A stretch of DNA of 64,000 nt, from assembly GCA_010093815.1 (NCBI GenBank), contig ML996587.1, one strand, 5' to 3'. This document shows, piece after piece, positions 11,130 through 63,900 of the stretch; positions within the stretch are counted from its first letter, which is position 1; each line of letters opens with the position of its first letter. Both the position numbers and the translations under genes were made by a program. The notes beneath the pieces were generated by a model, which saw only the letters and a list, made by a program, of their open reading frames with translations, did not search any database and was not told where the DNA came from. The DNA comes from Pseudovirgaria hyperparasitica. Its lineage: Eukaryota.

Positions 11130-11139
11130 NNNNNNNNNN
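11130..11139. other. Assembly gap (10 N) flanked by a ~95-bp direct duplication
   Basis: 11035-11129 is repeated at 11140-11234; the segment is single-copy in A1. Confidence 0.95.
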
Positions 11140-25860: not shown

Positions 25861-25869
25861 AAATATATA

Positions 25870-28800: not shown

Positions 28801-29217
28801 AAATAGATATATAAAGGGCTAACAAAGGCCTAAGTATCTATACTCCTCCAAGCCCGAATAGGCGCTATAGGTCTTCTATATTACCTCTACTAGAGAGGCG
28901 TCCTAGATATATCTCCCTAGTGTAAGGACTACGGCCGGAGAGGTATAATACGCTACTACCTCGCGACGTGCTCTAGTCTATATACCCTAAGACAAGCCCT
29001 CGTCCGTATAACGAGGACCTCCGACATCACGCGATAGCTTAATAAATACTCTAAGGACGTCGCCCGATAGATGCTCGCATACCTTCCTCTCCCCTAGTTC
29101 TAGTAGACCCGCGTATATATACTAGAAGAAGCCCGATATATACTAGAAGAACCCCGGTATACGTCGGAAGAACCCTGGGAGAACCGCGATTATTAGTTAA
29201 GGGCAGCCCTTAACTAA
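25870..29217 (+). pseudogene. LINE ORF2 (AP endonuclease + reverse transcriptase), RIP-inactivated
   Basis: LLGDFNL (26275), SDHE (26521), KAPRLDGI (~27220), LDIVGAFNKV (~27610), GIL*GSTIS (27781), GYTDN (27871). Start approximate. Confidence 0.88.
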
Positions 29218-29808
29218 TAATCTCCGCACCTATACGTGCTACCTAAGGGCAAACCATTATAACATAGGCTATAGGCCTATAGGTAGCCCCTAGGGCTATA
29301 TATATATAAAGAACGAGAGGATAGACAGAGCGTAGTCATAGATATAAGGGAGTTTTTCCTATTCGTAGGTTTCTTCTTATATAGTAGCTTAGACTAGAGG
29401 AGGCATGCGCCTATAGAGTGGTACTCTACCTAGTTTACTAATATTATTATTATTATTATCTTTAAAGGCTTTTAGGATTACTTAATTCTAGTATTATTAT
29501 AGAAACTATTTCTAGATTCGCTTTTTATAGAGATATTAAAGATAATTATTATAGAGATAGATAACTTAGAAGATTCTATTATATCCCTTATAGTAGAGTA
29601 AGATAAGTTAGTTATCTTCTAGTTAAATCTCTATACCTTTTAAAGGTATATCTCTATTATTCTTACTTATATATTTTCTATAATAATAGATAGTATAGTA
29701 AGTTCTAGAATCTTAGTCTATTATTAACTTATTATATAGTTCTTCTATAGTAAGGGTTTCTTTCTTACTATCTTCCTCTATAGTACTTTCTTCTATAGTT
29801 ACTTCTTT

Positions 29809-32800: not shown

Positions 32801-32992
32801 AGGCTATAGGCTAATAGGTGTACCCTATGGCTATATACTTAAGAAGAAATAAAGGTTTAATAAGATGTAATTATTAACATAAGGAAGTTTTCCCCTCTTG
32901 GGTTTCTTCTTATATAGTAGTCTAGACTAGAGGAGGCATAGGCCTATAGAGTACTACTCTACCTAGTTATACAATATTATTATTATTATTAT
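29809..32992 (+). mobile_element. 5'-truncated Tad1-like LINE copy L3
   Basis: Starts inside the endonuclease domain; TSD TATAGTTACTTCTTT (29794-29808 / 32993-33007); (TAT)n tail; only the right arm of the palindrome remains (32741-32754). Confidence 0.93.
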
Positions 32993-34649
32993 TATAGTTA
33001 CTTCTTTAGATACTATTTCTTTAGTTAGTTTAGATCTTCTTATTATATCTAAGTATTTCTATAGTTCCGTTTTTTCGTAGAGTAATAGAGGTTATTTACT
33101 AGCTATTAAAATATTTCTTTTCTTTAGATACTAATCTATACTATTCTTTTCTAACTTATATATAAAGTAGAGGTTATTAGTATAACTAGTCTATAATATA
33201 GCTATATAAGGTACTTCTTCTTTTTCTATAATAAAGTTTTCTTATCTTAGTACTAGGTTCTTAATCTAATTTTTCTTATTTTTATTTTTTAGATATTCGC
33301 GGATATAGTGTCTCTTTTCCTTATAGTAGAGATACTTATCTTTCTTCTTTAGTTACTCCTTTGCCTTATTAGATAGGCGTTTTATCTATAAGATACTAAG
33401 TTCTATTAGTATAGGTCTATTATAGAATCCCTTATATAAATAATTTAGAGTCTTATTAATATAGCTCTTTCTAGTATCTTATTTAAGTATAGGTTAAAAG
33501 ATCTTTTTCTCTCTTTTCTTATAGTATCTCTTATATAGTTAGTTATTAATCTAGACTATAAGCTTAATATATTCTTAGAGGTTAGTAGAATAGTCTCTCT
33601 CTCTAGAGATTTTATCCTTAATATTATTATAGAGTTCTATATAGAACTAGAGAATTAGAGGTTTATTATTCTAGCCTAACTAACTTAAGATTTATTAGAA
33701 TTTAGAGGCGTAGTTAGATATAGATTTTATCTAGACTATTTACTAGATCTATCTCTTAGCTATTCTTTATTTATCTATATCTCTAAAGGTTATCTTAATA
33801 TATTTCTCAAATTCTTTAAAACGTTTAAAGATCTTAGTAGTATTATTATATTAATTCTATAGATTATTTTCTATAAAGTCCCTTAAGTAGAGTTTAAACT
33901 AAGTAAGTATATCTCTCTTTAGTAATCTAGTAGTATATATAACTTATTCTTCTAGCTTCTAGATTTAGTAGATCTAGAGATATATTCTAATCTATATTAG
34001 AAATCCTTAGAGTTTACTTCGCTTACCTTTAAAAGATTCTAGGATTTTTCTTTTAAAGCTCTCTTTAGCTTTTCTAAGTTTAATATTTTCTCTCTAGAGC
34101 TCTATAACTTACTCCTCTAATTCTATAATAAGATATCTAACTTATTCTATAGTTAGGGCTTATAGAGTAGTTTACGAAGATAAGGACTATCTATTATTTA
34201 CTATTTTTTTATTTAAATAGATAGCGTAAATACTTACTTTAGAGTCTAAGATAAGTAATTAAACTATAATAAACCTTCTCTAGTAAGGATATGGCTTATC
34301 CCTAAAGTAGCCTATTATATAGAGTATTCTAGCTTTCCTAAAGATAAAGATACTTAGAAGGCTTAGAAGAGTATAAGTAGATTTATAGTAAGTATTAATA
34401 GAGTATAAATAGTAACTAGCTAGTAGGCGAGTAAAGTAGTAATTATATTAGTATAAGTTTAAATTAATTACTATAGAACTATCTCTAGAGGTTAGATTTA
34501 AAGGGTCTATATAGTTCTACTAAGGTTCTTTAATTAGAATACTTATTCTAAGCGTCTAGTATATTACTTAGAATATTAGTATTCTATTTCTAATTACTTA
34601 GTAGACTACTTAGAATATCTATTCTAAGTATCTATAATTAGCTCTCTCT

Positions 34650-40716: not shown

Positions 40717-41610
40717 ATATTAAAAGCTATTAATCTATTCTAACCTAGGCTAGACTCTAATAATCTAGCTATATATTATTATAGTTATTACTTTCTATTA
40801 TATACTACTTATAGTAGTACTAATTCTATAACTTATAGTACTTATATAACTAAGAAGTATTATTATTTATAGATATTTAAATAAGTTTAAAAAACTTTAT
40901 ATAGATTTACCTATATTAGTATAGATTACTACTAGACCTCTAGTAACCTCTACTAATAAGAAGTATAGTACTACTAATTATAATACCTTAGAGAAAGCTT
41001 TCTATAAATTATATATCTATAGTAAAAAGTATACCTAGAAGTATAACTCTAATATAATCTATAAAGATTTATTAGAATCTACTATAGCTATTATTACTAT
41101 AATTACTAGATAATATTATTTTTCTTAAATTATTATAGATTCTTACTAATATATATTAATCTCTATAATAGTACTAAGATCTCTACTACTTTAGACTTTT
41201 TATATATACTAGTAATATTAAGATTTCTAGAAAAGATTCTAGTAAAAAGACTAAGATTCCTTTCTTATATATATCTAAGAATTATAAATTTAAAGAAGAT
41301 AGCTCTAATCTAGAAGTTTCTATACTAAAGATATATAGTTCTATACTAATTATTAAATCTTTTTACTAATTTATATAATTCTTAGTATATCTATACTAGT
41401 CTATCTCTCTCTATTCTAGTTTCTACTACTCTATAGATTTCTATAGAGAAATTTATAGCTATAAAACACACTATATAGAGTTTATAGCATTAGAATAAAA
41501 GACTAGAGACCTATATTATAAAGCTCTATACTATACTAACTAAAAATTAGTAGAAGAAATTAGATATAATTATTATATTAATTAGTTCTTCTACTTCTAC
41601 TCTAACTTAA
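40717..41610 (+). pseudogene. C2 copy of the family C antisense intron-containing gene
   Basis: Colinear with 54873-55767 (reverse complement), more heavily mutated. Confidence 0.6.
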
Positions 41611-41907
41611 TTAGTTTAGATCTATACTAATTAGTACTAATATATTTCTTTTATCTAGTATTTTTAGTTTTTAGTTTTAATTTTAAAGTAATATTATTTT
41701 TTCTAGATAGATTAGTATAAGTTTATATAGATCTATATAGATCTCTATATTTTCTTCTAGTTTTCTTAATTTTATCTTTCTTTAATAATAACTTCTTTAA
41801 TCTCTTTAGTAATCTATACTAATCTATACTAATTAGTACTAATTTTTAATATCTCTTTCTCTTAATAAATTATTTTTCTAAGTCTCTTTTTTAGTTAAAT
41901 TTTTAAA

Positions 41908-42469: not shown

Positions 42470-42473
<4 letters not shown>

Positions 42474-42527
<54 letters not shown>

Positions 42528-45500
42528 TTATATAACTAGATAGAGTAGTATTCTATAGACCTATATCTTCTCTAGTCTAAGCTACTATGTAAGAAGAAAC
42601 CCCATAGGGAAAAACTTTCTTATATCTATAACTATATCTTATTAAACCTCTATTTTATCTTAAGTATATAGCTATAGAGTACGCCTATTAGTCTATAGTC
42701 TATATTACTATTATTTTACCCTTAGATAGTACGTATAGATATAGAGGTTATTAGTTAAGGGTTACTCTTAACTAATAATTAGGGTTCTCCTAGGGTTCTT
42801 CCGGTATATACTAGGGTCTATCTAGTATATATCTAGTCTCGTCTAGTATATATATCTAGATCTATTAGTATTAAGGGAGAGAGAGATATATAAGTATCTA
42901 CTAGGTAATCTTCTTAGGGTACTTATTAAGCTAGCGTATAATATTAGAAGTCCTTATTATATAGATAAGTAATTATCTCTATATATAGAGGTCTAGATAT
43001 ATTACGAGATAGTACTATATTATATCTCTCTAGCTATATACTTTATACTATAGAGATATATCTAGGATACCCCTCTAATATAGATAGTATAGAAGTTCTA
43101 TAGCTTCTATTTAGGCTTAGAGGAGGATAGATACTTAGGCTTTTATAAGCCCTTTATATATCTATTTACTTAGTTCCTTCTGTAGTTCTTAAATCTATTC
43201 TAGATATCTATTCTATTAGAATACCTAATAGATCTAGAGGACTTCCTTCTATTTATTCTAGGTCTATAACTATATAGCCCGTACGAGCTTCTAAGGGTTC
43301 TACTAGTCTAGAGAGACGTCTAGATTATTCTCTATCTTCTATATAATCTAATTTAAGTCTATCTCTATTAGATATCTATATTATATCTAGATTTAGTCTA
43401 TATATTATAGTACTTAATAGTAGATACTAACTTATATACGTAGTATAGTAAAAGTATATTCTATATATTCCTTCTATTTCTATACTTATTATTTAGTAAA
43501 GTATATTACCCTCTATATCTAGTAAAAGTCTTATATACTTATTATATTTATCTCGCGTTATAGTAGTACTATATTAGTAGCTTTATATATACTAGATATA
43601 AGGCGGAGTATATAGTTCTATATAGATTTAAGTTTTATTTATCTAGTCTATATAAGGGCTATATACTAGTACTTATATCTATATATAAAGGCGGGTCGTA
43701 CTATAGATATATATAGCTAGCGCGCCTTATTCTAGGTGGTTCCCTATATAGAGGCCGTAATCTAGTATATAGTAGCTTCTATCTTAAGGGCCCTAGCTAT
43801 AGTATATATAATCTATAGACTCTATTTAAGTTTATTATTAATTATAATACTAAGTATATATATACTCTATATTAGTAGTTTAGTAAAAGCTTCTATTCTA
43901 GAACATCGCTCTCCTTTCTTAGTAGTCTATCTTCTATAGTAGTTAATAAAGTAAATAAGTTAGTATTTCTTAGGGGTAAACTTTACTCTATAGCGCTTTA
44001 TCTACTAGATATATCTCTTATAGTCTTATTTAAGGTATTTATATATTAAACTAGTATTATTATTAATAGCTAGAAGGTATATATTATTAGCGTATTCTAC
44101 TATCTCTATATATTATATTCTCTATAGAAGGTCTATAGTAAAGAAGAGGAAGAGAATTAGAGAGATAGTACTTCCTTATAGAATACTATATATTATCTTC
44201 TTATATTTACTTTAATATCTAGAGATATATATCTAGGTAATTCTTTTAGTAAGAAAGGACTATATAAACTTTATAATCTATTCGGGTATACGTCTCTTCT
44301 ATAGGTTATAGATAAGTCTTATATAGTTTATCTTATTAAATATACTAGCTATATTAAGGGAGAGTAATATTACTATACGTCTCTACTTCTATATAGTCTA
44401 AATAACTTTAAGAATATATTAGATAGTAGTAATTAGAGAGCTTCTAGTCTTCGCCTTCTAGTTTACTAGAAGAAGATTATATTCTTATACTATAGTACTT
44501 ATCTTCTTTATAATTATAGCCTTAAGTATCTTACTAAGATAAAAGAGAAGGGTAATTAGTCTCTATCCTTTTAGAGAGTTAGAGTTCTTCTCTAGCTTTA
44601 GAAGTATAATAGTATAGATAGTCTAGAAGCTTTAGGGGTAGTATCTATTCTTAGTATATATCTAGAAGATAAGACTAATAAGTAGTAGAGTTATCTATAT
44701 AGTATATTTAAGGTATCTATTTAGTATTCTATCTAGTCTAGATACTTTATTATTTAGAAGTACTTTAATAGTATTAAGTATATTCTCTTCTATAATCTCT
44801 ATAGAGATATTAACTATATCTAGATATATAGTATCGTTAATATCTAATAGGTCTACTAGCTCTAGAGAGGGAAATATAACCTTTTAGAGGATCTCTATCT
44901 TCTTAGAACTTATAGTATATATTCTTCCCTAGTATATTAGAGAAGATATTAGGAGTAGTAGCGTTAGTATATCCACGCTCTTAGCCTACTTTACTATATA
45001 CTATAGCTCTATAGCCTATTATATATACTTATTAGTAATTATATACTAGTATTTATATTATTTATTATAGAGAGCTCTATTATAAGATTAGATTATCTCT
45101 TTCTATTTCTTCTATACCTTAGCTATCTAGATATAGTATACACGTATATATAGTCTCTAGGCTTTCTATCTACTTTTATATATTTAAGGTATACCTCTTA
45201 TATCTAGAGACTTATATATTTAGTATAGTATATATTTATCTCTTAAGTCTTAGAAGGCTTAAAGAAGAACTTATATAGCTCTATCTATAGCCGGGCTATT
45301 AGATATATTAACTATAGAGAGATATAGAATTACTAATTCTAGGTCCTCCCTATACTTCTTCTAGTTAGTATCTTTCTATAGCTATCTCCCCCTTTATTTA
45401 TTAGATATAGATATATCTATTATAGTCTCTATATACTTATGGTTAGAGTCTATCTATATCTTACTAGGGCGGTAGTATTCTACTCTATAGCTTATATATT

Positions 45501-47827
45501 CTATAGCGAGAGTAAGGTCGAGTATAGATCCCTTCTTATTCTATTTATACTTTCTCTATATAATCTATCTAACTAGTATAAGAAGATATAGAAGGTCTTA
45601 GTATCTTATATATAGTTCACTCGCCCTAAGCTCTTCTCTAATAACTATTAGGCCTCTCTACTATCTATAGTAGAGGTTAAAGTCGCCTAGAAGGATATAT
45701 TATTCTAGTACTATAATACTCTCTAGTATAGTATCTAGTATAAGTAATTCTCTCTAGTTATAGATATTATAGATATAGAGAGGCCCTATATTTATCTAGA
45801 GATATAGTATTATCTAGAGGTTATCTCGGTCTATATAGAACTATTCTAAGAGCGGGATTAATTTACATATATAGAATAGAACTCTTCTATCTAGGTCTAG
45901 GAGGTAGATAGTATAGTATTCTAGGTGTGTCGTTAGTTTATTAGTTTAGTAGTATTTATATAGCTTCTAGATAGCTATTATCGCGGTATCTATCTCTTCT
46001 AGAAGTATAGTCTAGTTTTCTTATTTATATTATACGTTTACCTATATAATAATAAGTATATCTTAGCTTCTTATTAGATACTAGGGAATACTTAAGTCTA
46101 TATACTAGTAGTATTAAGGCGTAACTATCTCTATATAGTAGCTACCTTAAGGATACCCTAGGGTCGCCTAATCTTCCTCTATATAGTATACTATTATATA
46201 TTAGTTCTACTCTCTTATAGATTAGTAGATATAGTTATAGATAAGGTTAGAGTAGATAGTAGAGGCCTTATAGCCTAGTATATCTACCTTACTTCTCTCG
46301 CCTTTATAGCGTTAATATACTTAGTAACTTATTTATATTTTATATATATTACTAACTAGAATAGGTATTTTCTATTATAGTTAGAGTACTTAGTAGTTTC
46401 TCTATCTTATATACTATTACTCTAGGTCCTATAGGGGTATTTCTAGGTACTATAGCTTTAATAATACTAGCTATATATAGCCTTTTAAGAGTACCTCTAC
46501 CTAGTATATCTATACCCTTAATAGTTAAAGTATTAGATTATTATCTATACTTAGTTCTATAGTTCTACTATAAGTAGTTCCCCTTTAGCTAAGAAGCCTT
46601 TCTATATAATCTTATAGATAAGAGCGGGGTCCCTAAGCTCTACTATTATAGTAGAGTATTTTTTTAATTTTATCTTAATTCTCTATATATTTTTCTACTA
46701 TATCTTTATAATCTTAATTCTAGGGTATTTTTAGTTATTAGATCTCTCTATTTACTTAATATTATTATCTCTAATAACTTAGCCCTAGATAGAGATAGTA
46801 TATATCTATATTAGGTATATATTTATATAGATAGACGCGCTAGAGAAGATATTATTTATTATGTTTAGGTTATAGAAGATAGTCTACTAGACTATATTAG
46901 TAGTAGTTATTAGTACTATACCTTCTAGAGTAAGTTCAGCTATAACTATATTTAACTATATTTCTTTCTATTTATTAATTTTATTAATAATATTCTTTAG
47001 GGACGTCTACTAGACTTATATAAGTACTTTCTTATTCTAGATAGTAACTTATATACTATACGCTCCTCCCTTAGATATCCTTAGTATCTAGACTATCTTA
47101 ATTATACTATCTATTAGTATAGTAATCTGTATCTATATACTAGAGCGTTTCTTCTAGATAAGGCCCTCCTAGATTCTTAGTAGACTAGCTTTAATTTAGT
47201 CTAGTCTAGACTCTAGACTTACTTCTAGCGTCTATTTTACTTCTATAGTAAGCTCCTTAATATTCTAGACTAGACTCTAGAAGATATTAAGAAGAGTAGT
47301 CTCTTCTTTCTTAACCTCTCTCTCTATATATACTATCTAGTATTTAATCTTATCTATAAGGGTATCTCTAATTGGAGTCCTCTCTATCTTAGTTATCTAT
47401 AGTATTTTATACTCTTAGTTATTTTCTATTTTTTAGATATTAGATTAGTTATTCTAGAATATACTACTATATAGCCGTTTCTACTATACTAATAGTAGAG
47501 GTATATCTAGTAGAAGCTAGGGTATATTAGTACCTAAGGCCGCTATAGTTTATTAGTTAAGGGCTACCCTTAACTAATAAAAAGAGAGTTAGCGTGTTAG
47601 TATTTATTAGTAGTAGTCTATACTTACTACTCTAAAGAGTTTTTAAGTATATATATATAGTATCTCTATACGTTAGTACTATTATATATTATATACTATA
47701 TATATATATATGTATTAAAGGTTATTATACTCGGTATACTCTATTAACTAATATATATAGATTACTATATCGCCCCGAATTAACTAGTTTTAGTCTCTTA
47801 GAGTATTAGAAGTTTAATTCTTATATA
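42474..47827 (-). mobile_element. Full-length Tad1-like LINE copy L4, heavily RIPped
   Basis: (AAT)~18 tail at 42471-42527; TSD TTATTAATTATA (42462-42473 / 47828-47839); palindromes at 42748-42778 and 47550-47580; colinear with L2/L3 on the minus strand. Confidence 0.93.
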
Positions 47828-49429
47828 TTATTAATTATATAAGTAATCTTATATAGATCTATTATTATATAGTAAAGCTTCTTCTTTAGTCTAATACTAT
47901 AAATATTCTTACTATTTAGTAAAACTTAATCTCTAATATTAAAGATTATAGGTTTTCTACCCTTATTATAGTATAATTTACTATAATCTATAGTATCTTA
48001 TAGTAACTTTATAATACTTCTTTATATTTAGAATAGTTCTATAGTAATTTCTATTACTTTAATATTAGATTATTCTACTTTAAACTATATTTCTAAGAAC
48101 TATATATTATAGTTCTAACTAAAGGTTACTTTAAATAAACTTACATAGATTAATATATAATAGCTATTATTATATATAAATTCTATAATATAGACTAATC
48201 TTATCTAGTTATTCTACTTATAGTTATAATATATATATAAATATACCTTAACTATCTAATTCTACTACTCTATCTATCTATCTATTTATAGATAGAATAT
48301 AGTACTAAGTTTCTACTTAATTCCTAGTATATAGTAGAAATCCTTCTAAAATTTAGAGATTATCTATAGACCTCTATCTAAAACTATACTATTTAGTATA
48401 CTATAGAGCTAAACTATATTATAGAGTAGTATATCTATAAGATCTAGTACTTAGATTATCTTTCTTATAGAAATATAGTATAATATCTTTATAAATCTAT
48501 CTAGAACTATAAGTAAACTATTATAAATATATCTAAGATACTTACTTAGGGGTAGATCTATAATAAAATCTATTAATAATTTCTTCTATATCTTCTTTAG
48601 TATAGATAATAGCCTTAATTTACTATATAGTAAGTATCTATATACTTTTATATACTAGTAAACGTTATATATTTTTATATAGTCCTTTATATATCCATAA
48701 AGACCTAGCTAGTTATATATTCTTTAGATTAAAATAACTATTCTTATAATACTAAAGTATTCTACTAATATATAATTATATTATTCCCTTAAAATATTAA
48801 TTTATAAGCCGCCTTCTAGTATATATAGTTAGCCTTAGAAGTAGATTATATCTAATTATTATTTCTACCTTAATAACTATAGTAGATCTATAGTACTTCC
48901 TTTTATACTTATAACTTTCTTTACTAATATATTAGAATTCTAGGTAGATTTAATTAAGTCTTTAAGGGTTTTCTTAGTTTCTTAGATATTTATTTAGATT
49001 ACTTAATACCTACTTTAATTCCTACGGAGAATTACTAAAAGTATCCTAGCTTCTAGTATTCTATTAGATAACTAGTCTTATAGTATCTATAGTATAGTAT
49101 AGTCTAGATTATACTAACTATCTATATTATTCTATAATAATTTCTTATAATCTTTATACTATAATGGAGAATTAGCTTTATTTGTTAGGACTTAGCCTTA
49201 GATAGAACCCGACCTACACGTACCTTAGCTAACAGGGATAGGAGGTGACGTGAAGGGCGGTAAACAGTCACGTGCTAGATAGATCGGCGTCCCTTTATGT
49301 ATATACTCTCGGATTCCTACTAAAAGGGTTTGGTAGTAATTCGTTCTATAATAGAATACACCCTATTATTCCATCTAACTATACTACTATCTAATAACCC
49401 TATTCTTACATTCGAATTACTCCCTATAT

Positions 49430-50760
49430 AGTACTATAGTTAAGATAGTCTAACTAGAACCGAGAAGGTCGACACGATCCACTATAGGGATAAGTAATAC
49501 TATATTAAATAATAGGGATCCTCTATAATCGGTATTAATCCCGGCCGTTTCTAACCGAGAAGTGGAAATATTAGACTAAATCACGGAGCTTTTAGACGAA
49601 GAAATGGTAGATACGCCGAGTAACTTCTAATAATATAAAGCCGGATAACGAGTCGTGGCGGAGCCACACGAGGTATCATAATAAACCATTACCGAACTTT
49701 AGAAATATATCGTAAATTAGGCTCGAGAGATTCAAACCCTTAAAGAATAGATAGAACGTGCGAAACTCCTCGCAAAGAGACAAGAACTTAAGGAGTCTCT
49801 TAAAGAACTACGCCGAACGATAGTAGGTGGACGACTTCCTATACTAATTCAGGCGGAATTAGTTTACCCACCATTAGAGTTACGACAATCTACTATATAC
49901 CTAGCCGCTTCGTTACCGATTTACCCTACTCCTTCCCTAGATATACTAAAACCTAAAGACCCGACTATATTTATAGGGAAGAACTAAAAGGAGTAGAAAG
50001 ACTAGAAGAGAGACTACGAAAAGTACTTCCTTAATAACTCTCTACTCTTTTCTACTAAAGTATAACACATTTCGTTCGGAGAACGATACCTAGACTTATA
50101 ATCCCGCGATCAATAGGATAGATAGAAGGAAGTATAGCTACTATCTACGATAACCTAGGAATATTTAGCTATATTTATACTAAACACCCTCGGAACGGAT
50201 AGAGAACGTAAAAGAAAGGTACTATCTAAGTTAAGAAGCGTAGCATAACGACCGAACTAGACACCTACTTAACTACTATAATACCTCTAAAACCTATAGA
50301 ATAATATCCCTATACTATAGGAAAATATTCGTATATTCTAGTTTCGCAAAGTACTACTTCCATTAATCCGCGAAAGACTAGGAATAGTATTATTAAGTTT
50401 TAACTATCTACACGAATTAGAGGAGAAAGCTAATAAACACTACCGTATCCTTAAGGAACGCGGCTCTCTAGGTAAAACTAACGAACCCTATACGGGTTAG
50501 AAACGAGGTCGATCGAATACGTTCGATTAAGAGTAACCTTACCGCGATTAGTACTAGAAGAGCGTAAATCGAGGTAGAAACGCGTTAAGAGGACACCGAA
50601 ATAATCGAGGCGGTGCTTCTTAACGCGGAAAAGGATAAGATATAGGCTTAAATATAACGCCTATCGTAAAATAGTAGGATTATAGCGCACTTCGTTACTA
50701 TAAGTATAGAGAAATAGAATATATTTCACCTAACTATAAGAATCTAAAAAAAGAATAGAC
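49430..50760 (+). pseudogene. gag: gag of C1 with CCHC knuckle
   Basis: PKDPTIFIGKN*KE (~49950), de-RIPped CYKCGETGHISPNC (~50696-50738). Ends approximate. Confidence 0.78.
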
Positions 50761-50789
50761 TAGTACACGAGACCTAACCACGTCCTTAG

Positions 50790-53700
50790 CTAAATTATAT
50801 ATACTTAGAAGGAGCCGTAGCGCCTTCCGGCGAGTAAAGATCTAATATTACTAAAGATATTATTATCTATAGTAAATAGTAATAAAACTATATAGGCTCT
50901 TATAGATACTAGTATAGAAGATAACTATATTTCGTTAATTCTTATAAAGACGTATAGATTATCGTACGATCTCGGTAAAGTTAGCCGAACTATCGTAGTT
51001 AATAGATATGAAGTTAGAACTTTAGGCAAAGCTATAACGAATTACGAAGTTTATAACTCGAAGATAATAAAATAGTAGATGTCTAATAAATTTATCGTGG
51101 CTAATATTAGCTAATAGAATATAATTCTAGGGATGCCTTAGCTTAGACGCCTAAACCCTATCCTTGATTTTTAGAAGGAGATATTGACGTTCCGATAATA
51201 CTATAGTAAATTATACTAGTAAGTCATAACTATTAGTAAGGAGGCATTGAACCTCGCTGTACGGACCCGATCGTCGCTAATCTATCTTACGTCCTTATCG
51301 ATCGTTAATAAAGATAAGGATAATAGTAATAATCGGGGCGAAGACACGCTACCCAACGTATATTCGTAGTATATGGATGTGTTTTCGGTAGAAGATACGT
51401 CACTTCTCCCTAATCACGGGCCGTATAAGCTAAAGATCGAGCTCGAAGAGGGAGTAGACGTCCCTTATAGTCTACTTTACCTACTTTCAAGACTAGAACT
51501 TAAAGTTCTTTATAAATATATTAAAGAATACCTCGAAAGAGACTAGATACGTTATAGTACGTCATCGGCCGGTATACCTATTCTCTTCATAAAGAAGAAA
51601 GACGGAAGTTTATATCTATACGTCGACTATTAGGTACTAAATACGGTGACTAAGAAGAATCGTTACCTATTACCGCTAGTTAGTAAATCTTTAGACTAAT
51701 TAACGAAGGTAAAGTACTTTATAAAGCTAGATTTATAAGATATATATTACCGGCTTTAAATTCGTCGCGGAGATAAGTGGAAAACCGCATTTCGGACTAG
51801 ATATAGTTATTTTAAGTATACTATTATACTATTCGGGCTAATAAATGTGCTAGGAGCGTTTTAAGGATATATTAATACTATACTCGTAGGATTACTTAAC
51901 GTGATTTACGTAGTTTATCTCAATGATATACTAATTTACTCCGATAGTATATAGGATTATAAAGGACACGTGAAATCGGTGCTAAATCGTCTAAGGTAGT
52001 ATAAACTCTACGTAAAATTATCTAAATGCGAGTTTCACTAATAAGAAGTTGGGTTTCTCGGCTTTATTATAATATATGGCGGCCTAAAAATGGAGCCGGA
52101 GCGTGTAAAGACTATCATAGAATAGCTAGAACCTACTACTATACGTTAAATTAGAATATTTATAGGTTTCGTGAACTATTATCGTAAATTTATTATAGAC
52201 TTCTTACGAATTACGGCGCTACTTAATAAACTTATAGAGAATGGCGGTAAAATTCCTATAGATAGGCGAGTATAGCGTAAAGCTAAGTCGGTCGAGATAT
52301 AGTTAACGCCGGAAGCGCGAGATGCGTTCCGATCATTAAAGAATTACTTTATAACTACGCCGATTCTTAGGTATTTCGATTCTAAGAAGTATATTCGGGT
52401 CGAAACTAACGCGTTAGAATTCGTAATTACTAGAATCATTAGTTAACCGTATAAAGATGCGAAAGACAAGGTATAATAGCACCCGGTCGCTTTCTTTTCC
52501 CGTAAAATGGCGGATATAGAGACGCGTTATAATACGCACGACTAGGAACTACTTATAATCGTCGAGAGTTTTAAGTAATAGCGATATTATTTAGAAGGCT
52601 CCGTATATTAGATCGAATTATTATTAGATTATATAAATCTACGTTACTTTATATCGACTAAGGTCCTTAATCACTAATAAGTACGTTAGGCTAAGTAGAT
52701 ATTAATATTTAACTTTAACATCTTATATAAAGCTAGAAGAGAGAATAAAGCTAATCCTCTATCGCAGCATAAAGATTATAAGAAATCGTTATAGAATAAC
52801 GTAGATAGTTAGTGTAAGTTAGACTATACTATACTTTAGATACTATAAGACTAGTTATCTAATAGAATACTAGAAGCTAGGACACTTTCGGCGATTCTCC
52901 GCGGGAATTAGAACGGGTATTAAGTAATCTAAATAAACGTCTAAGAAACTAAGAAAACCCTTAAAGACTTAATTAAATCTACCTAGAATTCCGATATATT
53001 AGTAAAGAAAGTCATAAGTATAAAAGGAAGCGCTATAGATCCGCCGTGGTTATTAAGGTAGAAATAATAATTAGACGCGATCTACTTCTAAGGCCGACTC
53101 TACGTGCCGGAAGGCGGCTTACGAATTAATGTTTTAAGAGAATAGCACGATTACGCGTTAGTAGGGTACTTTAGCATTATAAGGACGGTTAATTTAATCC
53201 GAAGGATATACGACTAGCCGGGTCTTTATAAATATATAAAAGACTACGTAAAAATGTATAACGTTTACTAGTATACGAAAGTATATAGATACTTACCATA
53301 TAGCGAATTAAGGCCATTACCTATACTAAAGGAGGCATAGAAGGAATTATTAATGGATTTCATTATAGATCTACCCCTAAGTAAGTATTCTAGATACATT
53401 TATAATAGTTTACTCGTAGTTCTAGATAGATTTATAAAGATATTATACTATATCCCTATAAGGAAGACGATCTAAGCACCGAATCTTATAGATATACTAC
53501 TCTATAACGTAGTCCGGCTCTACGGTATACTAAACGGTATAGTTTCGGATAGAGATCCGTAGATAACGTCTAAATTTTAGAAGGATTTCTACTATACGCT
53601 AGGAATTAAGCGGAAACTTAGTACTATATTCCATCTATAAATAGATAGATAGACGGAGCGGTAGAATCAGATAGTCGAGGCGTATTTACGCGTATATTAT

Positions 53701-54530
53701 AACTATAAGTAGGATAACTAGGTAAGGTTAGTCTATGTCGCGGAATTCGCGTATAATAATAGCCGATATACGTTAACCCACGTGAGTCTATTCGAAGTAA
53801 ACTTCGGTTAGAACCATAATATATAGTTCTTAGAGACTTAGTTTAAAGTAGAATAACCTAACGTTAAAGTAATAGAAATTACTATAGAACTATTCTAAAC
53901 GTAAAGAAGCGTTATAAAGTTACTATAAGATACTATAAATTATAGTAAATCGTATTATAATAAGGGTAGAAAACCTATAATCTTTAATGTTAGGGATAAA
54001 GTTTTACTAAATAGTAAGAATATTCGTAGTATTAGGCTAAAGAAGAAGCTTAACTATATAATAATAGGTCTATATAAGATTACTCGTGTAATTAATAACC
54101 AGGCGTACGAGTTATAACTCTCTCCTACGTTAAAGATATATAATATATTCTATATTACGCTTCTCGAGCCATTTCATGCCTTATTATTACCGGATCGTTC
54201 CGAATAGATACTATATAAAGTAGTTACGTAAGAAGGTATAGATATCTACGAAGTTAAGTAGATACTTAGCTAGTAACGTGCCGAAGATAGTACGTAGCTA
54301 TATAAGATTCGTTAGAAAGGATATAATTCTAATAAAGATACTTAGGAACCTATAATAAACATTAGTAAAGTAGCGATATTAGTATATAAGTAGTAATTAG
54401 TAAAGGAAGCCGCGGAATCGCAGAGAATTATACTAAAGTACAGCGATTTAACGTTTTTTAGTATAGTTTAGCGCTAAGGACGGCCGCCTAAAAGGAAGAA
54501 GGTGAAAGAGATATAGATCTTTAAAACATT
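50790..54530 (+). pseudogene. pol: pol of C1: protease, RT, RNase H, integrase, chromodomain
   Basis: ALIDTS (~50896), KKKDGSL..VDY, RRGDKWKTAFRTRY, VVYLNDILIYS (~51910), KLSKCEF, VETNA, YNTHD*ELL, MDFIIDLP, YEVK*IL...IR*KGY...DT*EP (~54247-54350). Ends approximate. Confidence 0.92.
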
Positions 54531-54872
54531 CTAAGGAATTAAGGAACTTCCTTAGAAAGTTCGAACTTAGAACTTTAAAAAATTTAACTAAAAAAGAGAC
54601 TTAGAAAAATGATTTACTAAGAGAAATAGACATTAAAAATCGGTGCCGATTGGTATAGATCGGTATAGATTACTAAAGAGATTAAAGAAGTTATTATTAA
54701 AGAAAGATGAAATTAAGAAAGCTAGAAGAAAATATAAAGATCTATATAGATCTATGTAAACTCACACTAATCTATCTAGAAGAAGCAAGATCGCTTTAAA
54801 ATTAAAACCGAAAAACCAAAAACGCTAGATAAAAGAGATATATTAGTACCGATTGGTATAGATCTAAACTAT

Positions 54873-55767
54873 TTATATCGGAGTAGGAGTAGAAGTACTA
54901 ATTACCGCGATAGTTACATCTAATTCCTTTTACTAGTTCTTATTTACCATAGTATAGAGCTTTATAATATAAGTCTCTAGCCTTTTATTCCGATACTAGA
55001 AATTCTATATAGCGCGCCTTATAGCTATAAACTCCTCTATAGAAACATATAGAGCGGCGGGACCTAGGACGGAGAGGGACGGACCGGCGCGGGCACGCTA
55101 AGAATTATATAAATCAGCGAAAAGATTTAACGATTGGTATAGAACCATATACCTTTAGTATAGAAACCTCTAGATTAGAGCCATCTTCCCTAAATTTATA
55201 GCTCTTTAGCATGCGCGAGGAAGGAACCTTAGCCTTTTTACTAGAACCTTTTCTAGGAATTCTAATATCGCCGGTATATAGAAAGAAGTCTAAAGTAGTA
55301 GAGATTTTAGCACTATTATAGAGATTAATATATATTAGTAAGAATCTATAACGATTTAAGAAAAACGATATTACCTAGTAATCGCGGTAATAATAGCTAT
55401 AGTAGATTCCAATAAATCCTTATAGATCTTATTAGAATTATACTCCTAGGCGTAACCCTTACCTTAGATATATAGCTTATAGAAAGCCTTCTCTAAGGCG
55501 TTGCGATTAGTAGTACTACGCTTCTTATTAGTAGGGGTTACTAGAGGCCTAGTAGTAATCTATACTAATATAAGTAAATCTACGTAAAGTTCTTCGAACT
55601 TACTTAAATATCTATAAGTAATAACGCTTCTTAGTCATGTAAGTACCGTATATTATAGATTTAGTACTACTATAAGTAATATACGACGGAAAGCGACAAC
55701 CATAATAATATATAGCTAGATTATTAGAGCCCGGCCTAGGTCGGGGTAGATTAATAGCTTTCGACAT
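54873..55767 (-). pseudogene. Antisense four-exon cargo gene of family C (~241 aa) with Zn2Cys6-like N-terminal cysteine pattern
   Basis: Exons 55767-55612, 55559-55375, 55312-55153, 55097-54873; introns of 52, 62 and 55 bp with GT...AG ends (first GT preserved in C3 at 61946); introns 2 and 3 have CTRAY-like branch sites; splicing keeps one frame with only RIP-type TAA/TAG stops. Confidence 0.7.
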
Positions 55768-58700
55768 ATTAGTAATATATATAAGATAGAGATTATTTAA
55801 AGGCGCCTATTTCCGTACTAATTACTTTAGAGCGTCGAGATTTCGGGAAACTATATTATAATTATTACTAATTTATGCGGATTATTACGAATTATACTAT
55901 TACTAGCTAAGGACGGTATAAAAATTAGTAAAATGCGTAAATCGCACTAAATTATAGTAAATCTATATAAATCTATGTCTATAAGGATCGGGTAATATAC
56001 CTAATAATCTAAAAAACTCTATAAAGAGTTAAGAAGTTTTTTAAAGAAAGGAATATTTCTAAGAAAAGATTTTAATATAGGTAGCATCTAGGCTTACCTA
56101 ATTAGATCACGTGATACGCTAGGCCTAATTAGGCAATCTTACCTATGTAAGAAGTTAGAATAGATAAAATCTAGTTTATTAGGAAAACGCTTATATAAAT
56201 CTTAGATTAGCGAATATTAGTAAATATCTAAGACGAAGTATAGAGAACGACTAAGGTCTTACGAGACTTAGAATAGGGATATAGAGATAGGTAACGACCT
56301 AGGTCGCTAAGGGTAGCTTCCTAGAGGGAAGGGATAATTATTAGAACTTAGCCTTAGGTAGAACCCGACCTATATATACCTTAGCTAATAGAGTTAGGAG
56401 GTGACGTAAAGGGCGGTAAATAGTCACGTGCTAGATAGATCGGCGTCCCTTTATATATATACTCTCGGATTCCTACTAAAAGGGTTCGGTAGTAATTCGT
56501 TCTATGATAGAATACACCCTATTGTTCTATCTAACTACACTACTATCCAATAACCCTATTCTTACATTATTCTCTCTTCTAGCTTTATATAAGATTTTAA
56601 AGTTGAATATTAATATCTACTTAGCCTAATATACTTATTAGTAATTAAGGACCTTAGTTAATATAAAGTAATATAGATTTATATAATCTAATAATAATTT
56701 AATCTAATATATAGAACCTTCTAAATAATATTACTATTACTTAAAACTCTTAATAATTATAAGTAGTTTCTAGTTATATATATTATAATATATCTCTATA
56801 TCTACTATTTTATAGAAAAATAAGACGACTAGATACTATTATATCTTATTTTTTATATCTTTATACGGTTAACTAATAATTCTAGTAATTATAAATTCTA
56901 ATATATTAGTTTCGACCTAAATATACTTCTTAGAATTAAAATACCTAAGAATTAGTATAGTTATAAAGTAATTCTTTAATAATTAGAATATATCTTATAC
57001 TTCTAGTATTAACTATATCTTAACTAACTTAGCTTTATACTATACTTATCTATCTATAGAGATTTTACTACTATTCTCTATAAGTTTATTAAGTAGTACT
57101 ATAATTTATAAGAGGTCTATAATAAATTTATAATAATAGTTTATAAAATCTATAAATATTCTAATTTAATATATAGTAGTAGATTGTAGCTATTCTATAA
57201 TAGTCTTTATACGCTCTAGCTCTATTTTTTAACCGCTATATATTATAATAAAGCTAAGAAACCTAACTTCTTATTAGTAGAACTTATATTTAAATAACTT
57301 TATATAGAGCTTATACTATCTTAGATAATTTAGTACTAATTTTATATATTCTTTATAATTCTATATACTATTAGAGTAAATTAGTATATTATTAAGATAG
57401 ACTATATAGATTATATTAAGTAATTCTATAAGTATAGTATTAATATATTCTTAAAATACTTCTAGTATATTTATTAGTCTAAACAGTATAATAGTATACT
57501 TAAAATAACTATATCTAGTCTAAAATATAGTTTTCTACTTATCTCTATAATAAATTTAAAGCTAGTAATATATATCTTATAAATCTAGCTTTATAAAGTA
57601 CTTTACCTTTATTAATTAGTCTAAAGATTTACTAACTAGTAGTAATAGATAATAATTCTTCTTAGTTACTATATTTAGTATCTAATAGTTAATATATAGA
57701 TAGAAACTTCTATCTTTCTTCTTTATAAAGAGAATAGATATACTAGCTAATAATATACTATAATATATCTAGTCTCTTCTAAGGTATTCTTTAATATATT
57801 TAGAAAGAACTTTAAGTTCTAGTCTTAAAAGTAGATAAAGTAGACTATAAGAAATATCTACTCCCTCTTTAAGCTTAATCTTTAGCTTATATAGTCTATA
57901 ATTAGAGAGAAGTAATATATCTTCTACTAAAAATATATCTATATACTATAAATATATATTAGATAGCGTGTCTTTATTCTAATTATTACTATTATTCTTA
58001 TCTTTATTAAGAATTAATAGAGATATAAGATAGATTAGTAATAATTAAGTCTATATAGTAAGGTTCTATACCTTCTTACTAATAACTATAACTTACTAGT
58101 ATAATTTACTATAATATTAGTAGAATATTAAGATCTTCTTCTAAACATTAAGAATTAGATTTTAATATTTAAGCTAAGGTATTTCTAGAATTATATTCTA
58201 TTAGCTAATATTAGCTATAATAAACTTATTAGATATCTACTATTTTATTATCTTTAAGTTATAAACTTTATAATTTATTATAGCTTTATCTAAAGTTCTA
58301 ACTTTATATCTATTAACTATAATAGTTTAGCTAACTTTACTAAGATTATATAATAATCTATACTTCTTTATAAGAATTAATAAAATATAGTTATCTTCTA
58401 TACTAGTATCTATAAGAGCCTATATAGTTTTATTACTATTTACTATAGATAATAATATCTTTAGTAATATTAGATCTTTACTTACTAGAAGGTACTATAG
58501 CTCCTTCTAAGTATATATAATTTAGCTAAGAATATAGTTAGATCTTATATACTAGTCTATTCTTTTTTTAGATTCTTATAGTTAGGTAAAATATATTCTA
58601 TTTCTCTATACTTATAGTAATAAAGTATACTATAATCCTACTATCTTATAATAGATATTATATTTAAGTCTATATCTTATTCCTTTCTATATTAAGAAGT

Positions 58701-60132
58701 ACCGCCTTAATTATTTTAGTATTCTCTTAATATATTTCTACTCTAATTTATACTCTTCTAGTACTAATTATAGTAAGGTTACTCTTAATTAAATATATTT
58801 AATTAACCTTATTTCTAACCTATATAGAGTTTATTAGTTTTATCTAGAGAGCTATATTCCTTAAGAATATAGTAGTATTTATTAGCTTTCTTCTCTAATT
58901 TATATAGATAATTAAAACTTAATAATACTATTTCTAGTCTTTCGTGGATTAATAGGAGTAGTACTTTATAAAACTAGAATATATAAATATTTTTCTATAA
59001 TATAGGGATATTATTCTATAGGTTTTAAAGGTATTATAGTAGTTAAGTAAATATCTAGTTCGGTTATTATACTACGCTTCTTAACTTAGATAGTACCTTT
59101 CTTTTATATTCTCTATCTATTCTAAGGCTATTTAGTATAAATATAGCTAAATATTTCTAGGTTATTATAGATAGTAGCTATATTTCCTTCTATCTATTCT
59201 ATTAATTATAGAATTATAAGTCTAGGTATTATTCTCTAAATAAAATATATTATACTTTAGTAGAAAAGAGTAGAGAGTTATTAAGGAAGTACTTTTTATA
59301 GTCTCTCTTCTAGTCTTTCTACTCCTTTTAGTTCTTCTCTATAAATATAATTAGATCTTTAGATTTTAGTATATCTAGAGAAGGAGTAGAGTAAATTAGT
59401 AATAAAGCGGCCGGGAGTATAGTAGATTATTATAACTCTAGTAGTAGATAAACTAATTCTACCTAAATTAGTATAGGAAGTTATCCGTCTACTATTATTC
59501 GGTATAGTTCTTTAAGAGACTCTTTAAGTTCTTATCTCTTTATAAGAAGTTTTATATATTTAGTCTATTCTTTAAGAATCTAAATCTCTTAGACTTAATT
59601 AGTAATATACTTCTATAGTTTAGTAATAGTTTATTATAACACCTTATATAGCTCCACTACAACTTATTATCTAACTTCATATTATTAGAAGTTACTTAGT
59701 ATATCTACTATTTCTTTATTAGAAAGCTCTGTGATTTAGTCTAATATCTCTACTTCTTAGTTAGAAATAGCTAGATTTAATACTAATTATAGAGGATCCC
59801 TATTATTTAATATAGTATTACTTATCTCTATAGTAGATTATATTAACCTTCTTAGTTCTAGTTAAACTATCTTAACTATAGTACTATATAGAGAGTAATT
59901 TAAATATAAGAATAGGGTTATTAGATAGTAGTATAGTTAGATAGAATAATAGAGTATATTCTATTATAGAATAAATTACTACTAAACTCTTTTAGTAGAA
60001 ATCTAAGAGTATATATATAAAGAGACGCCGATCTATCTAGTATATAACCATTTACTACCCTTTATACTACCTTCTAACTATATTAGCTAAGGTATATATA
60101 GATCGGGTTATATATAAGACTAAGTCCTAACA

Positions 60133-60989: not shown

Positions 60990-63900
60990 TGTAAGAATAG
61001 GGTTATTAGATAGTAGTATAGTTAGATAGAATAATAGAGTATATTCTTTTATAGAACGAATTACTACTAAACCCTTTTAGTAGAAATCTAAGAGTATATA
61101 TATAAAAAGACGCCGATCTATCTAGTATATAACTATTTACCGCCCTTTACGCCACCTTCTAACTATATTAGCTAAGGTATATATAGATTAGGTTATACCT
61201 AAGACTAAGTTCTAATAATTATCCCCTTCCTTTAGGAAGCTACCCTTAGTAACCTAGATTATTATCTATCTCTATATTCTAATTCTAAGTCTTATAAGAC
61301 CTTAGTCGTTCTCTATACTTCGTCTTAGATATTTACTAATATTTATTAATCTAAGATTTATATAAGCGTTTTCCTAATAAACTAGATTTTATCTATCTTA
61401 AATTCTTATATAGGTAAGATTACCTAATTAGGCCTAGCGTATCATATAATATAATTAGATAAGTCTAGATACTATCTATATTAAAATCTTTTCTTAGAAA
61501 TATTCCTTTCTTTAAAAAACTTCTTAACTCTTTATAGAGTTTTTTAGATTATTAGATATATTACCCGATTCTTATAGATATAGATTTATATAGATTTACT
61601 ATAATTTACTATAATTTATATAGCTTACTAACTTTTATAGTATACTTAGCTAATAATAATAATAATCTATAAGAATCTATATCAATTAGTAGTAATTATA
61701 ATATAGTTTCCCGAAATCTTAATACTCTAAAGTAATTAGTATAGAAATAGGCGCCTTTAAATAATCCCTATCTTATATACGTTACTAATATATTAAAAGC
61801 TATTAATCTACTCTAACCTAGGCCGGGCTCTAATAATCTAGCTATATATTATTATAGTTATCACTTTCCATCGTATATTACTTACGGTAGTACTAAATCT
61901 ATAATATACAGTACTTATATAACTAAGAAGCGTTATTACTTATAGGTATTTAAGTAAGTTCGAAGAACTTTATATAGATTTACTTATATTAGTATAGATT
62001 ACTACTAGGCCTCTAGTAACCTCTACTAATAAGAAGTATAGTACTACTAATTATAACGCCTTAGAGAAGACTTTCTATAAGCTATATATCTAAGGTAAAG
62101 ATTATATCTTAGAGTACGATTCTAATATAATCTATAAGAATTTATTAGAATCTACTATAGCTATTATTACCGTAATTATTAGGTAATATTATTTTTCTTA
62201 AATTATTATAGATTCTTACTAATATATATTAATCTCTATAATAGTACTAAAATCTCTACTACTTTAGACTTCTTTCTATATACTAGTAATATTAAAATTT
62301 CTAGAAAAGGTTCTAGTAAAAAGGCTAAGGTTCCTTTCTTATATATACTAAAAGACTGTAAATTTAGAGAAGATAGCTCTAATCTAGAAGTTTCTATACT
62401 AAAGGTATATAGTTCTATACTAATTATTAAATCTTTTTACTAATTTATATAATTCTTAGCGTACCCACGCTAGTCTATCTCTCTCTATTTTAGGTTCTAC
62501 CGCTCTATAGATTTCTATAGAGGAGTTTATAGCTATAAGGCGCGCTATATAGAATTTATAGCGTTAGAATAAAAGGCTAGAGACTTATATTATAAAGCTC
62601 TATACTATACTAAATAAGAACTAGCGGAAGGAATTAGATATAACTATTACAGTAATTAGTACTTCTACTTCTACTCCGACTTAATTAGTTTAGATCTATA
62701 CTAATTAGTACTAATATATTTCTTTTATCTAGTGTTTTTAGTTTTCGGTTTTAATTTTAAAGTAATCTTACTTCTTCTAGATAGATTAGTATAAATTTAT
62801 ATAGATCTATATAGATCTTTATATTTTCTTTTAGCTTTCTTAATTTTATCTTTCTTTAATAATAACTTCTTTAATCTCTTTAGTAATCTATACCAATCTA
62901 TACTAATTAGTACCGATTTTTAATGTCTATTTCTCTTAGTAAATTATTTTTCTAAGTCTCTTTTTTAGTTAAATTTTTTAAAGTTCTAACTTTAAACTTT
63001 CTAAGGAAGTTCTAAGTTTAAACTTTCTAAGGGAGTTCTAAGTTCGAACTTTCTAAGGAAGTTCCTTAATTCCTTAGAATAAATGTTTTAAAGATCTATA
63101 TCTCTTTTACCTTCTTTCTTTTAGACGGCCGTTCTTAGCGCTAAACTATACTAAAAAACATTAAATCGCCGTACTTTAGTATAATTCTCTATAATTCTAT
63201 AGCTTCCTTTACTAATCGCTACTTATATACTAATATTACTACTTTACTAATATTTATTATAGGTTTCTAAGTATCTTTATTAGGATTATATCATCTAAGC
63301 CCGAACGGGCGCCATGGGACTCCTATACTACATCCATAAGAGAGGCGTTCCCGACACCTCCCTATAGTATAAGGCATACGGCCGGAGAGATATAATACGC
63401 TACTATCTAGCTATATGCCCTAATCTCCATATATAATAGTAATAGCTTATCTACGTTATGAAGACTTTAGATATCGTATAATAGCTTAATAAGTACCCTA
63501 AGGACGTCTCCCGATAGATACTTATATATCTACTACTCCTCTAGTACTAGTGGACCTGGAAATATATACCGGAAGAGACCCGGTATATGCCGGTAGTAAC
63601 CCGATATATACCGGAAGAACCCTAGGAGAACCCCGATTATTAGTTAAGGGCAGCCCTTAACTAATAACCTCCGCACCTACACGTGCTACCTAAGGGTAAA
63701 ATAACGGTAATATAGGCTATAGGCTAATAGGCGTACCCTATAGCTATATACCTAAGATAAAATAGAGGTTTAACGAGATATAGTTATAGACATAAGGAAG
63801 TTTTTCCCTATAGGGTTTCTTCTTATATAGTGGCTTAGACTAGAGGAGGCATAGGCCTATAGAGTACTACTCTACCTAGTTATATAATATTATTATTATT

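Follow-up and report, generated by a model that had tools for sequence, protein, structure and literature searches.

The 64,000-nucleotide (nt) stretch of Pseudovirgaria hyperparasitica contig ML996587.1 analyzed here (the window) is fungal repeat DNA in which GC content falls to 19–36% across 33–64 kb and in which a family of long terminal repeat (LTR) retrotransposons, family C, is present in three copies degraded by repeat-induced point mutation (RIP). In copy 1, a complete plus-strand element at 49183–56566, a coding signal that is invariant to RIP is best read as an antisense, intron-containing coding region, a reading the evidence supports; it lies within the element on the strand opposite gag-pol, after the end of pol and before the 3′ LTR. 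The gene is dead in all three copies. We rate as slightly better than even the chance that this locus is an antisense accessory gene of four exons, with a Cys-rich N-terminus, that RIP has inactivated.

A RIP-invariant coding signal between pol and the 3′ LTR

The gene model runs on the minus strand from an ATG at 55767 to 54874, in the interval separating the end of the pol domains (~54372) from the 3′ LTR, and its translation opens exactly as quoted in a preliminary description of this DNA. Rebuilding the short GT-AG introns proposed there to join the exons in one frame gives introns of 55, 62 and 55 nt, with donors GTAAGT, GTAATA and GTATAT and acceptors that all end in TAG. The resulting model of 240 codons bears out the claimed length of ~241 residues; its frame is broken by seven in-frame stops in copy 1, nine in copy 2 (which also has a 1-bp deletion in exon 3) and eight in copy 3.

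Proposed exon 1 (55604–55767) holds the ATG and a Tyr/Cys-rich motif at codons 21–50 (55707–55618). Intron 1 (55549–55603) begins 13 nt past the last Tyr/Cys codon with a canonical GTAAGT donor, a hexamer for which the window has 55 sites when both strands are counted. Exon 2 (55375–55548) has two stops in 57 codons, each of which is a non-stop codon in one other copy, and is followed by intron 2 (55313–55374), of the form GTAATA...ACTAAT...TAG. The 53 codons of exon 3 (55153–55312) contain no stop, as had been described, compared with 1–10 in the other five frames. Intron 3 (55098–55152, GTATAT...TAG) keeps its donor G in two of the three copies and its acceptor AG in all three. Exon 4 (54874–55097) is the weakest, with four stops in 73 codons; three of these are TAG codons common to all copies, and the true gene end may therefore be the TAG at 55007–55005. 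Codon 222 reads CGG in copy 3 and in ~48% of the family depth, and DNA contigs from the same species keep the G of the antisense ATG in ~15% of the family depth. A GC-rich island at 55045–55097, with a purine-rich plus strand, survives at the start of exon 4 in copy 1; it is TA-rich in copy 2.

RIP converts C to T and G to A and cannot create C or G. Because it leaves the string of purines and pyrimidines unchanged, a coding score computed on that string is RIP-proof. Our score uses dicodons in the purine/pyrimidine alphabet and was trained on 32 intact pol open reading frames (ORFs) of relatives, the relatives being 76 metagenome loci with related chromoviruses that were reached by pol searches. 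When calibrated on pieces of the relatives’ antisense genes, it ranks the true frame top of six in 13 of 15 cases; as to the exceptions, the true frame of locus L045 does score best at the right coordinates, and exon 1 of locus L009 fails. In the window, the proposed frame is the best of six in all four exons, with 3.2 (a weak score), 9.0, 9.2 and 8.3 bits for exons 1–4, and the three introns score ~0. A version trained on the relatives’ antisense genes gives 1.8, 14.6, 13.6 and 8.5 bits for the same exons. In sliding windows, the signal lies in frame −f2 at 54850–55075, −f1 at 55150–55374, −f2 at 55300–55600 and, weakly, −f1 at 55600–55824, changes that match the switches demanded by the exon–intron model, and no antisense coding signal is seen in these windows upstream of the ATG.

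As the choice of a stop-poor frame biases such a score, we also scored stop-minimized models of control starts, comprising 464 ATG starts in the window, each with up to three free GT-AG introns of 45–75 nt. The locus totals 27.3 bits, which is reached by none of the 104 controls in the comparably degraded 33–64 kb part (maximum 21.9 bits) and by none of the 53 inside copy 1. Across the whole window, 32 of 464 controls reach this total, all of them in 1–33 kb with the real coding regions of other elements. The stop-minimizing search recovers introns 1 and 2 of the proposed model unaided. By this score the proposed frames are protein-coding in character, within an ORF that is itself broken by 7–9 stops. 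More broadly, scoring coding character on purines and pyrimidines makes it possible to retrieve reading frames even where RIP has destroyed the DNA.

The three copies document the decay of the locus. The antisense region corresponds, by BLAST and alignment, to 40717–41650 in copy 2, the most mutated copy, and to 61790–62720 in copy 3, which is cut by the window end; both elements lie on the minus strand, placing the antisense region on the plus strand, with the Tyr/Cys motif at 40777 and 61850, respectively. The spacer between pol and the 3′ LTR is, as previously noted, conserved in all three copies (83–87% identity, two gap columns in 1,735). Of its 334 variable columns, 299 differ by transitions only (C/T or A/G), and the TpA fraction at the antisense locus is 0.18; transition-only differences, TpA excess and low GC mark family C as a RIP-mutated repeat. 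Thousands of family C pieces occur in DNA contigs of the same species, indicating a very high-copy family in which the antisense region is retained. Among the variants listed, an older base is kept in at least 5% of copies at only ~29 sites in 1,051 nt, compared with 189 TpA, and retention of CpA/TpG across the family is below 5% at most sites; RIP is therefore near saturation at this locus. Because RIP struck copies that had been almost identical, dN/dS or indel comparisons among the three carry no information. Three of the seven stops in copy 1 read as sense codons in another copy, and the stop density of the model (7/240, 2.9%) compares with 67/991 (6.8%) in the true pol frame of copy 1 and 8–11% in other frames.

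The proposed Cys motif and the antisense genes of related chromoviruses

The GAL4-type Zn2Cys6 binuclear cluster has the pattern C-x2-C-x6-C-x5-12-C-x2-C-x6-8-C, and the preliminary description proposed that reverting Tyr codons to Cys would restore such a cluster at the start of the antisense protein. Tyr or Cys does occupy codons 21, 24, 32, 40, 43 and 50. Just one Cys codon is left, again as described: codon 24 is TGT in copy 1 only, and codons 21, 32, 40, 43 and 50 are TAT or TAC in all three copies. Both conserved Cys residues of the integrase zinc motif of copy 1 are now Tyr when its translation is compared with the consensus, so Tyr can stand for a lost Cys here. The proposal breaks down at the third position. 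In a less-mutated version, represented by a loose-end consensus at 55678 in the DNA contigs, codons 31–34 are GCT CAC GGT GGT, placing Ala-His at codons 31–32, and the variant 55674 A>G accounts for 36% of depth in run X1 and ~30% in run X2. Because RIP cannot create C or G, GCT CAC is the older state. Codon 31, which is the place of the third ligand in the spacing of the six-Cys relatives discussed below, is ACT in all three copies and GCT in the less-mutated copy. Non-Cys ancestral codons, the outcome that the preliminary description itself had named as decisive against it, are thus found at the third position.

With x7 instead of x6 and with Ala/His as the third ligand in less-mutated copies, the assignment to the GAL4-type C6 class does not hold, and a six-Cys Zn2Cys6 domain fails for the window element. 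The motif also has no basic residues after its second Cys. Judged from its codons, the ancestral module may at best have been a five-Cys C-x2-C-x15-C-x2-C-x6-C, a non-canonical relative of the zinc cluster. A loose Cys-or-Tyr pattern gives five stop-free matches in the six frames of the window, comprising the three copies of the locus and two unrelated sites, and in the degraded half Tyr accounts for ~10% of codons whichever frame is read; the Tyr pattern alone is no more than expected by chance.

An intact antisense gene occupies the same position in the relative that, by pol, is the nearest one free of such mutation. In a FastTree phylogeny of 60 pol rows, the window pol groups with that of locus L009 (support 98, with a long-branch warning). 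The minus strand of L009:3679–4748, in the pol–LTR spacer of a metagenome chromovirus, carries a four-exon gene whose three GTAAGT...AG introns of 49, 72 and 58 nt can be excised to leave a 296-residue ORF without stops. This gene shares with the window model its place and orientation, four exons with three short introns, and a Cys-rich exon 1 with an early C-x2-C, no Cys at the x6 position past that first C-x2-C, and a terminal C-x2-C-x6-C followed directly by a GTAAGT intron. The terminal C-x2-C-x6-C closes exon 1 of L009 two codons ahead of intron 1, and the window Tyr-x2-Tyr-x6-Tyr ends five codons ahead of its GTAAGT. By contrast, the exons of L009 measure 267, 227, 211 and 204 nt (the last running beyond the stop codon) compared with 164, 174, 160 and 224 nt in the window, the intron phases are 0, 2, 0 in L009 and 2, 2, 0 in the window, and 49 residues separate the two Cys groups in L009 but only 15 in the window. 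No relative of the L009 antisense protein turned up among the remaining 75 loci or in Pfam, viral contigs or the ESM Atlas. In another member of the window’s pol clade, the minus strand of L032:7444–7764 has a 107-residue antisense ORF without Cys in a 1.2-kb spacer.

Other related chromoviruses carry antisense genes with a full set of six Cys residues. When all six frames of the 76 loci were scanned for six Cys in this pattern, 17 matches emerged, of which 11 are clean, stop-free and all antisense to pol; one more antisense match, in L068, is interrupted by an in-frame stop, and the plus strand gave just two, both of them low-complexity sequences with stops. The antisense ORFs, in L014, L016, L017, L020, L021 (two), L035, L042, L046, L045, L056 and L068, encode 170–220 residues and lie just downstream of pol, overlapping its 3′ end. 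In their proteins a short leader precedes the six invariant Cys, which are followed by a long helix (coiled coil) and an acidic tail. The Cys residues are invariant in one family alignment (A2), and in another (A3) five are invariant and one is at least 90% conserved; the spacing is 2-6-8-2-6 in 122 of 129 family members. Genes of the L014/L035/L042 type have no introns, whereas in those of the L045/L068 type the first exon is charged and a canonical intron immediately precedes the first Cys; this type lies between pol and a confirmed 3′ LTR. More than 345 database proteins are homologous to the family, with the Cys conserved at 22–30% identity; annotated homologs occur in the genomes of Bipolaris, Pyrenophora, Exserohilum and Stemphylium, and Pleosporales homologs are named ‘Zn(2)-C6 fungal-type domain-containing protein’ in UniRef.

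The likeness of this six-Cys family to GAL4-type domains is consistent but weak. Matches of PF00172 to the relatives’ proteins are all sub-threshold (best E=0.006, 17 bits compared with a cut-off of 21). The top zinc-finger chains in a profile search of the PDB are Pho7 (an S. pombe Zn2Cys6 protein), Leu3, Lac9 and Gal4, with E values of 0.17–2; none of these matches is significant, and chains of coiled coils and of ribosomal S27 are interspersed with them. An AlphaFold model of a six-Cys protein (predicted local distance difference test score 79) shows two short helices over the Cys region and, besides these, a helix of 83 residues. The first 11 Foldseek matches are all Zn2Cys6 domains, but at E values of ~1–5.

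The window locus resembles the six-Cys family in being antisense and just downstream of pol, in having a short N-terminal leader followed by the Cys motif, and in having Tyr/Cys in register at five of the six positions. It differs in its Ala at the third position, its apparent introns, its pol clade and the absence of a significant profile match, and the family is typified by six (nearly) invariant Cys, an intronless organization, a long coiled coil and overlap with the 3′ end of pol. With the third Cys absent and a different pol clade, the window family does not appear, from its sequence, to belong to the six-Cys family. Two further approaches were of little use: RIP-aware scoring with the best possible ancestor per codon was too permissive and was dropped, and a pattern search for intron signatures downstream of pol in the relatives (12 antisense, 7 sense) missed known introns and was uninformative.

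A precedent for antisense genes in fungal gypsy elements is brtn, which the Boty-like Ty3/gypsy elements of Botrytis cinerea are reported to carry on the antisense strand (PMC8365987, PMC4227169). Both brtn and the window locus would be additional antisense genes in fungal Ty3/gypsy elements; the likeness is one of description, and the window gene is RIP-dead. Plant Ty3/gypsy elements such as Retand have a long region between pol and the 3′ LTR with extra, partly antisense coding capacity; these belong to a plant non-chromovirus lineage, and the abstract makes no mention of zinc clusters (PMC11963269). Full-text literature searches, some of them aimed at zinc-cluster antisense genes, returned no description of such genes in LTR retrotransposons, and the class found in the relatives appears to be undescribed.

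Competing explanations and possible roles

The main rival to an antisense gene is a non-coding spacer. On this view, RIP composition (TpA-rich, with abundant TAT, TAG and GTA) and frames chosen post hoc would account for the pattern of Tyr codons, the apparent GT-AG introns and the open stretches alike. Several observations favor this rival or weigh against the gene. Across the whole window, 117 of 464 controls are equally stop-poor with three introns, reaching six stops or fewer, and judged on this scale the three-intron model alone is no more than expected by chance. The hexamers of donors 2 and 3 (GTAATA and GTATAT, the latter at 2.2 per kb) are common in the window, as is CTAAT, and two of the five Cys-or-Tyr matches are unrelated to the locus. 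TAG stands at codons 52, 197, 200 and 221 in every copy, and a secondary origin cannot be demonstrated for any of these four; nor are the three copies independent evidence. Homology searches of Pfam, including PF00172, with the antisense translation (X at stops) gave no match at E≤1, a miss expected either way after RIP turned Cys into Tyr; phmmer with the antisense frame found none among 1.84 billion proteins, and the spacer, compared in all six frames with the 76 related loci by tblastn, gave nothing below E=5. RIP-aware alignment of exons 1–4 with L009 gave p=0.055, 0.46, 0.125 and 0.49, and the locus is not among the top matches when the whole window is scanned. A similar scan with the core profile of the six-Cys family ranks the three copies 5th, 8th and 24th of 127,774 positions: four unrelated positions outrank all copies and seven positions, one of them copy 3, outrank copy 1, corresponding to p of ~0.1 for the spacer. 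The full-profile local score is 23.6 compared with a 99th percentile of 24.2, in an alignment swamped by coiled-coil noise. Moreover, the carriers of the six-Cys gene make up two pol clades, and the window pol falls in neither of them but in another of 10 rows (support 99) that contains no carrier; its pairing with L009 joins two long branches. Against the non-coding spacer, 116 of the 117 stop-poor controls fall in the less degraded 1–33 kb half; in 33–64 kb only 1 of 104 controls has six stops or fewer, and this is a true pol-sense start; none attains the coding score of the locus, and inside copy 1 the count is 1 of 53. The RIP-invariant signal, in addition, tracks the predicted frame switches and ends at the ATG, and the relatives have real genes in the same place and orientation. 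We regard a non-coding spacer as rather unlikely, if still a serious contender.

Alternatively, the coding-like signal could come from the sense strand, where pol would have a long C-terminal extension or a third sense ORF would follow, and be mirrored on the antisense strand by a purine-N-pyrimidine pattern that looks the same in either direction. The purine/pyrimidine pattern is indeed nearly strand-symmetric, true coding regions elsewhere in the window also score high on the opposite strand, a plus-strand segment in the pol frame at 53722–55419 reaches 23 bits, and plus frames are best at 54400–54850. Yet the antisense frame beats the best sense frame in all four exons (3.2 versus 1.2, 9.0 versus 5.3, 9.2 versus 2.7 and 8.3 versus 3.3 bits), sense frames contain 7–12% stops across 54874–55767, and a single sense ORF would give no frame switches at the intron positions, which leaves this explanation very improbable. 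A similarly small chance attaches to a host gene fragment with introns, captured in reverse by the ancestor of the family and without function for the element. The exon–intron structure antisense to the element and the lack of detectable homology to other elements’ antisense genes would fit such a capture, but phmmer finds no cellular homolog either, the locus has an ATG start, its position and orientation fit the accessory genes of relatives, and the family is very high-copy with the region retained. Least probable in our estimation is an intronless six-Cys homolog of the L014/L035/L042 type, whose ‘introns’ would be artifacts that skip RIP-made stops, for example at Gln codons of a coiled coil. 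Its appeal lies in the register of Tyr/Cys with the 2-6-8-2-6 spacing at five of six positions, in a motif that begins 20 codons past the ATG as in the six-Cys family, and in the absence of introns from genes of that type; it conflicts with the Ala at the third position, the move of the best frame from −f1 to −f2 after exon 1, the 19 stops in 298 codons of the unspliced ATG frame, a pol outside the carrier clades and a profile score that is not significant.

If the locus is an antisense accessory gene, the ancestor of family C would have carried it opposite gag-pol, between pol and the 3′ LTR, with four exons, three short introns and a product of ~196–240 residues. That protein would have started with ~20 residues followed by a Cys-rich module, C-x2-C ... 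C-x2-C-x6-C. Transcription would have run antisense, from a promoter in the 570 nt beside the 3′ LTR or from the LTR itself. Introns antisense to the genomic RNA survive retrotransposition, and the preliminary description’s use of this logic is sound; those proposed here would have persisted because the genomic RNA, being sense, does not present them as introns. To judge by the intact Zn2Cys6-like antisense proteins with coiled coils in related elements, the product could have been a zinc-binding, probably dimeric, nucleic-acid-binding regulator of the element. The earlier claim that the element encodes its own regulator keeps its basis in an antisense coding region, which is supported by the coding signal and by the intact L009 gene, but as all copies are dead it can apply at most to the ancestor.

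A broader proposal is that antisense genes for small zinc-cluster-like coiled-coil proteins, GAL4-style regulators in effect, belong to fungal chromoviruses of more than one clade, with or without introns, and that the window gene is a true, divergent member, killed by RIP, with five Cys and four exons. The class itself is grounded in intact ORFs counted in 12 of the 76 related loci (L068 with an in-frame stop), the >345 homologs and the conservation of the Cys residues; that the window gene truly belongs to it we hold to be possible but doubtful. If true, a retrotransposon that supplies a sequence-specific regulator of its own would form a self-contained regulatory module. Such a regulator could tune the LTR promoter of the element, help it to resist host silencing or to exploit it, or rewire host genes near the many LTR copies. 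The antisense, intron-bearing arrangement also parallels, in nature, the intron-marked reporter cassettes with which retrotransposition is scored. The window locus is a dead remnant, yet it led to intact relatives that can be tested, namely L009 and the six-Cys family with its annotated but uncharacterized Pleosporales proteins.

The host element and its surroundings

Copy 1 is flanked by a 5-bp target-site duplication, TTATT, read directly at 49178–49182 and repeated at 56567–56571; the pieces of copy 2 on either side overlap by 5 nt in BLAST. Its plus-strand LTRs, at 49183–49410 (5′, TG...CA) and 56339–56566 (3′), are direct repeats with 92% identity. The RIP-degraded gag-pol (49411–54372, plus strand, in the frame of 49402) has 115 stops in 1,657 codons. 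Pfam searches of its translation, with X at stops, find RVT_1 at ~51589–52071 (E=2e-19), RNase H (RT_RNaseH_2) at ~52306–52692 (E=1e-17), the integrase zinc-binding domain (Integrase_H2C2) at ~53119–53253 (E=7.5e-7), SH3_Tf2-1 at ~53995–54177 (E=4e-10) and a weak chromodomain at ~54247–54372 (Chromo, E=0.045, below the cut-off); in most of the listed pol relatives, the precomputed annotation includes the chromodomain PF00385. The LTRs, the 5-bp duplication, the order RT–RNase H–integrase and the C-terminal chromodomain, weak here, make copy 1 a Ty3/gypsy chromovirus.

Downstream of the chromodomain, a Lys/Arg-rich stretch at 54373–54850, where plus frames are best in the purine/pyrimidine scan, is possibly a C-terminal tail of pol. 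It contains, just past the chromodomain, a tandem repeat at ~54550–54640 with a unit of ~24 nt, whose copy number varies among the three copies and which is the sole sizeable indel of the spacer. On the other side of the antisense model, the region 5′ of its ATG (55768–56322) has no antisense coding signal, contains 8–13% stop codons in all six frames and is conserved like the remaining spacer; it could serve as a putative promoter or 5′ untranslated region. A purine-rich run at 56323–56333 on the plus strand, read directly beside the 3′ LTR, is identified as the polypurine tract by position and composition only.

Copy 2 lies on the minus strand in pieces at 60132–56567, 49182–47828, 42471–41969 and 41931–39913. 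Copy 1 is inserted into its pol, with host sequence at 47828–49182 and 56567–60132 and TTATT duplicated. It follows that family C remained active beyond the arrival of copy 2 and that RIP struck both copies later. A second insertion of ~5.3 kb breaks copy 2 at 42472–47827; it has a strong minus-strand purine/pyrimidine coding signal (34.7 bits at 43567–44928, with a further segment at 46560–47396) and is therefore probably another degraded element. A different repeat family occupies 19730–33000 as three partial copies spaced 6,063 and 3,567 nt apart. The frame at ~21800–22260 resembles a reverse transcriptase with a degraded YADD box, and a high-scoring chance match of the six-Cys core profile, at 21883, falls inside this other element’s reverse-transcriptase frame. 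The window also contains a run of 10 N at 11130–11139.

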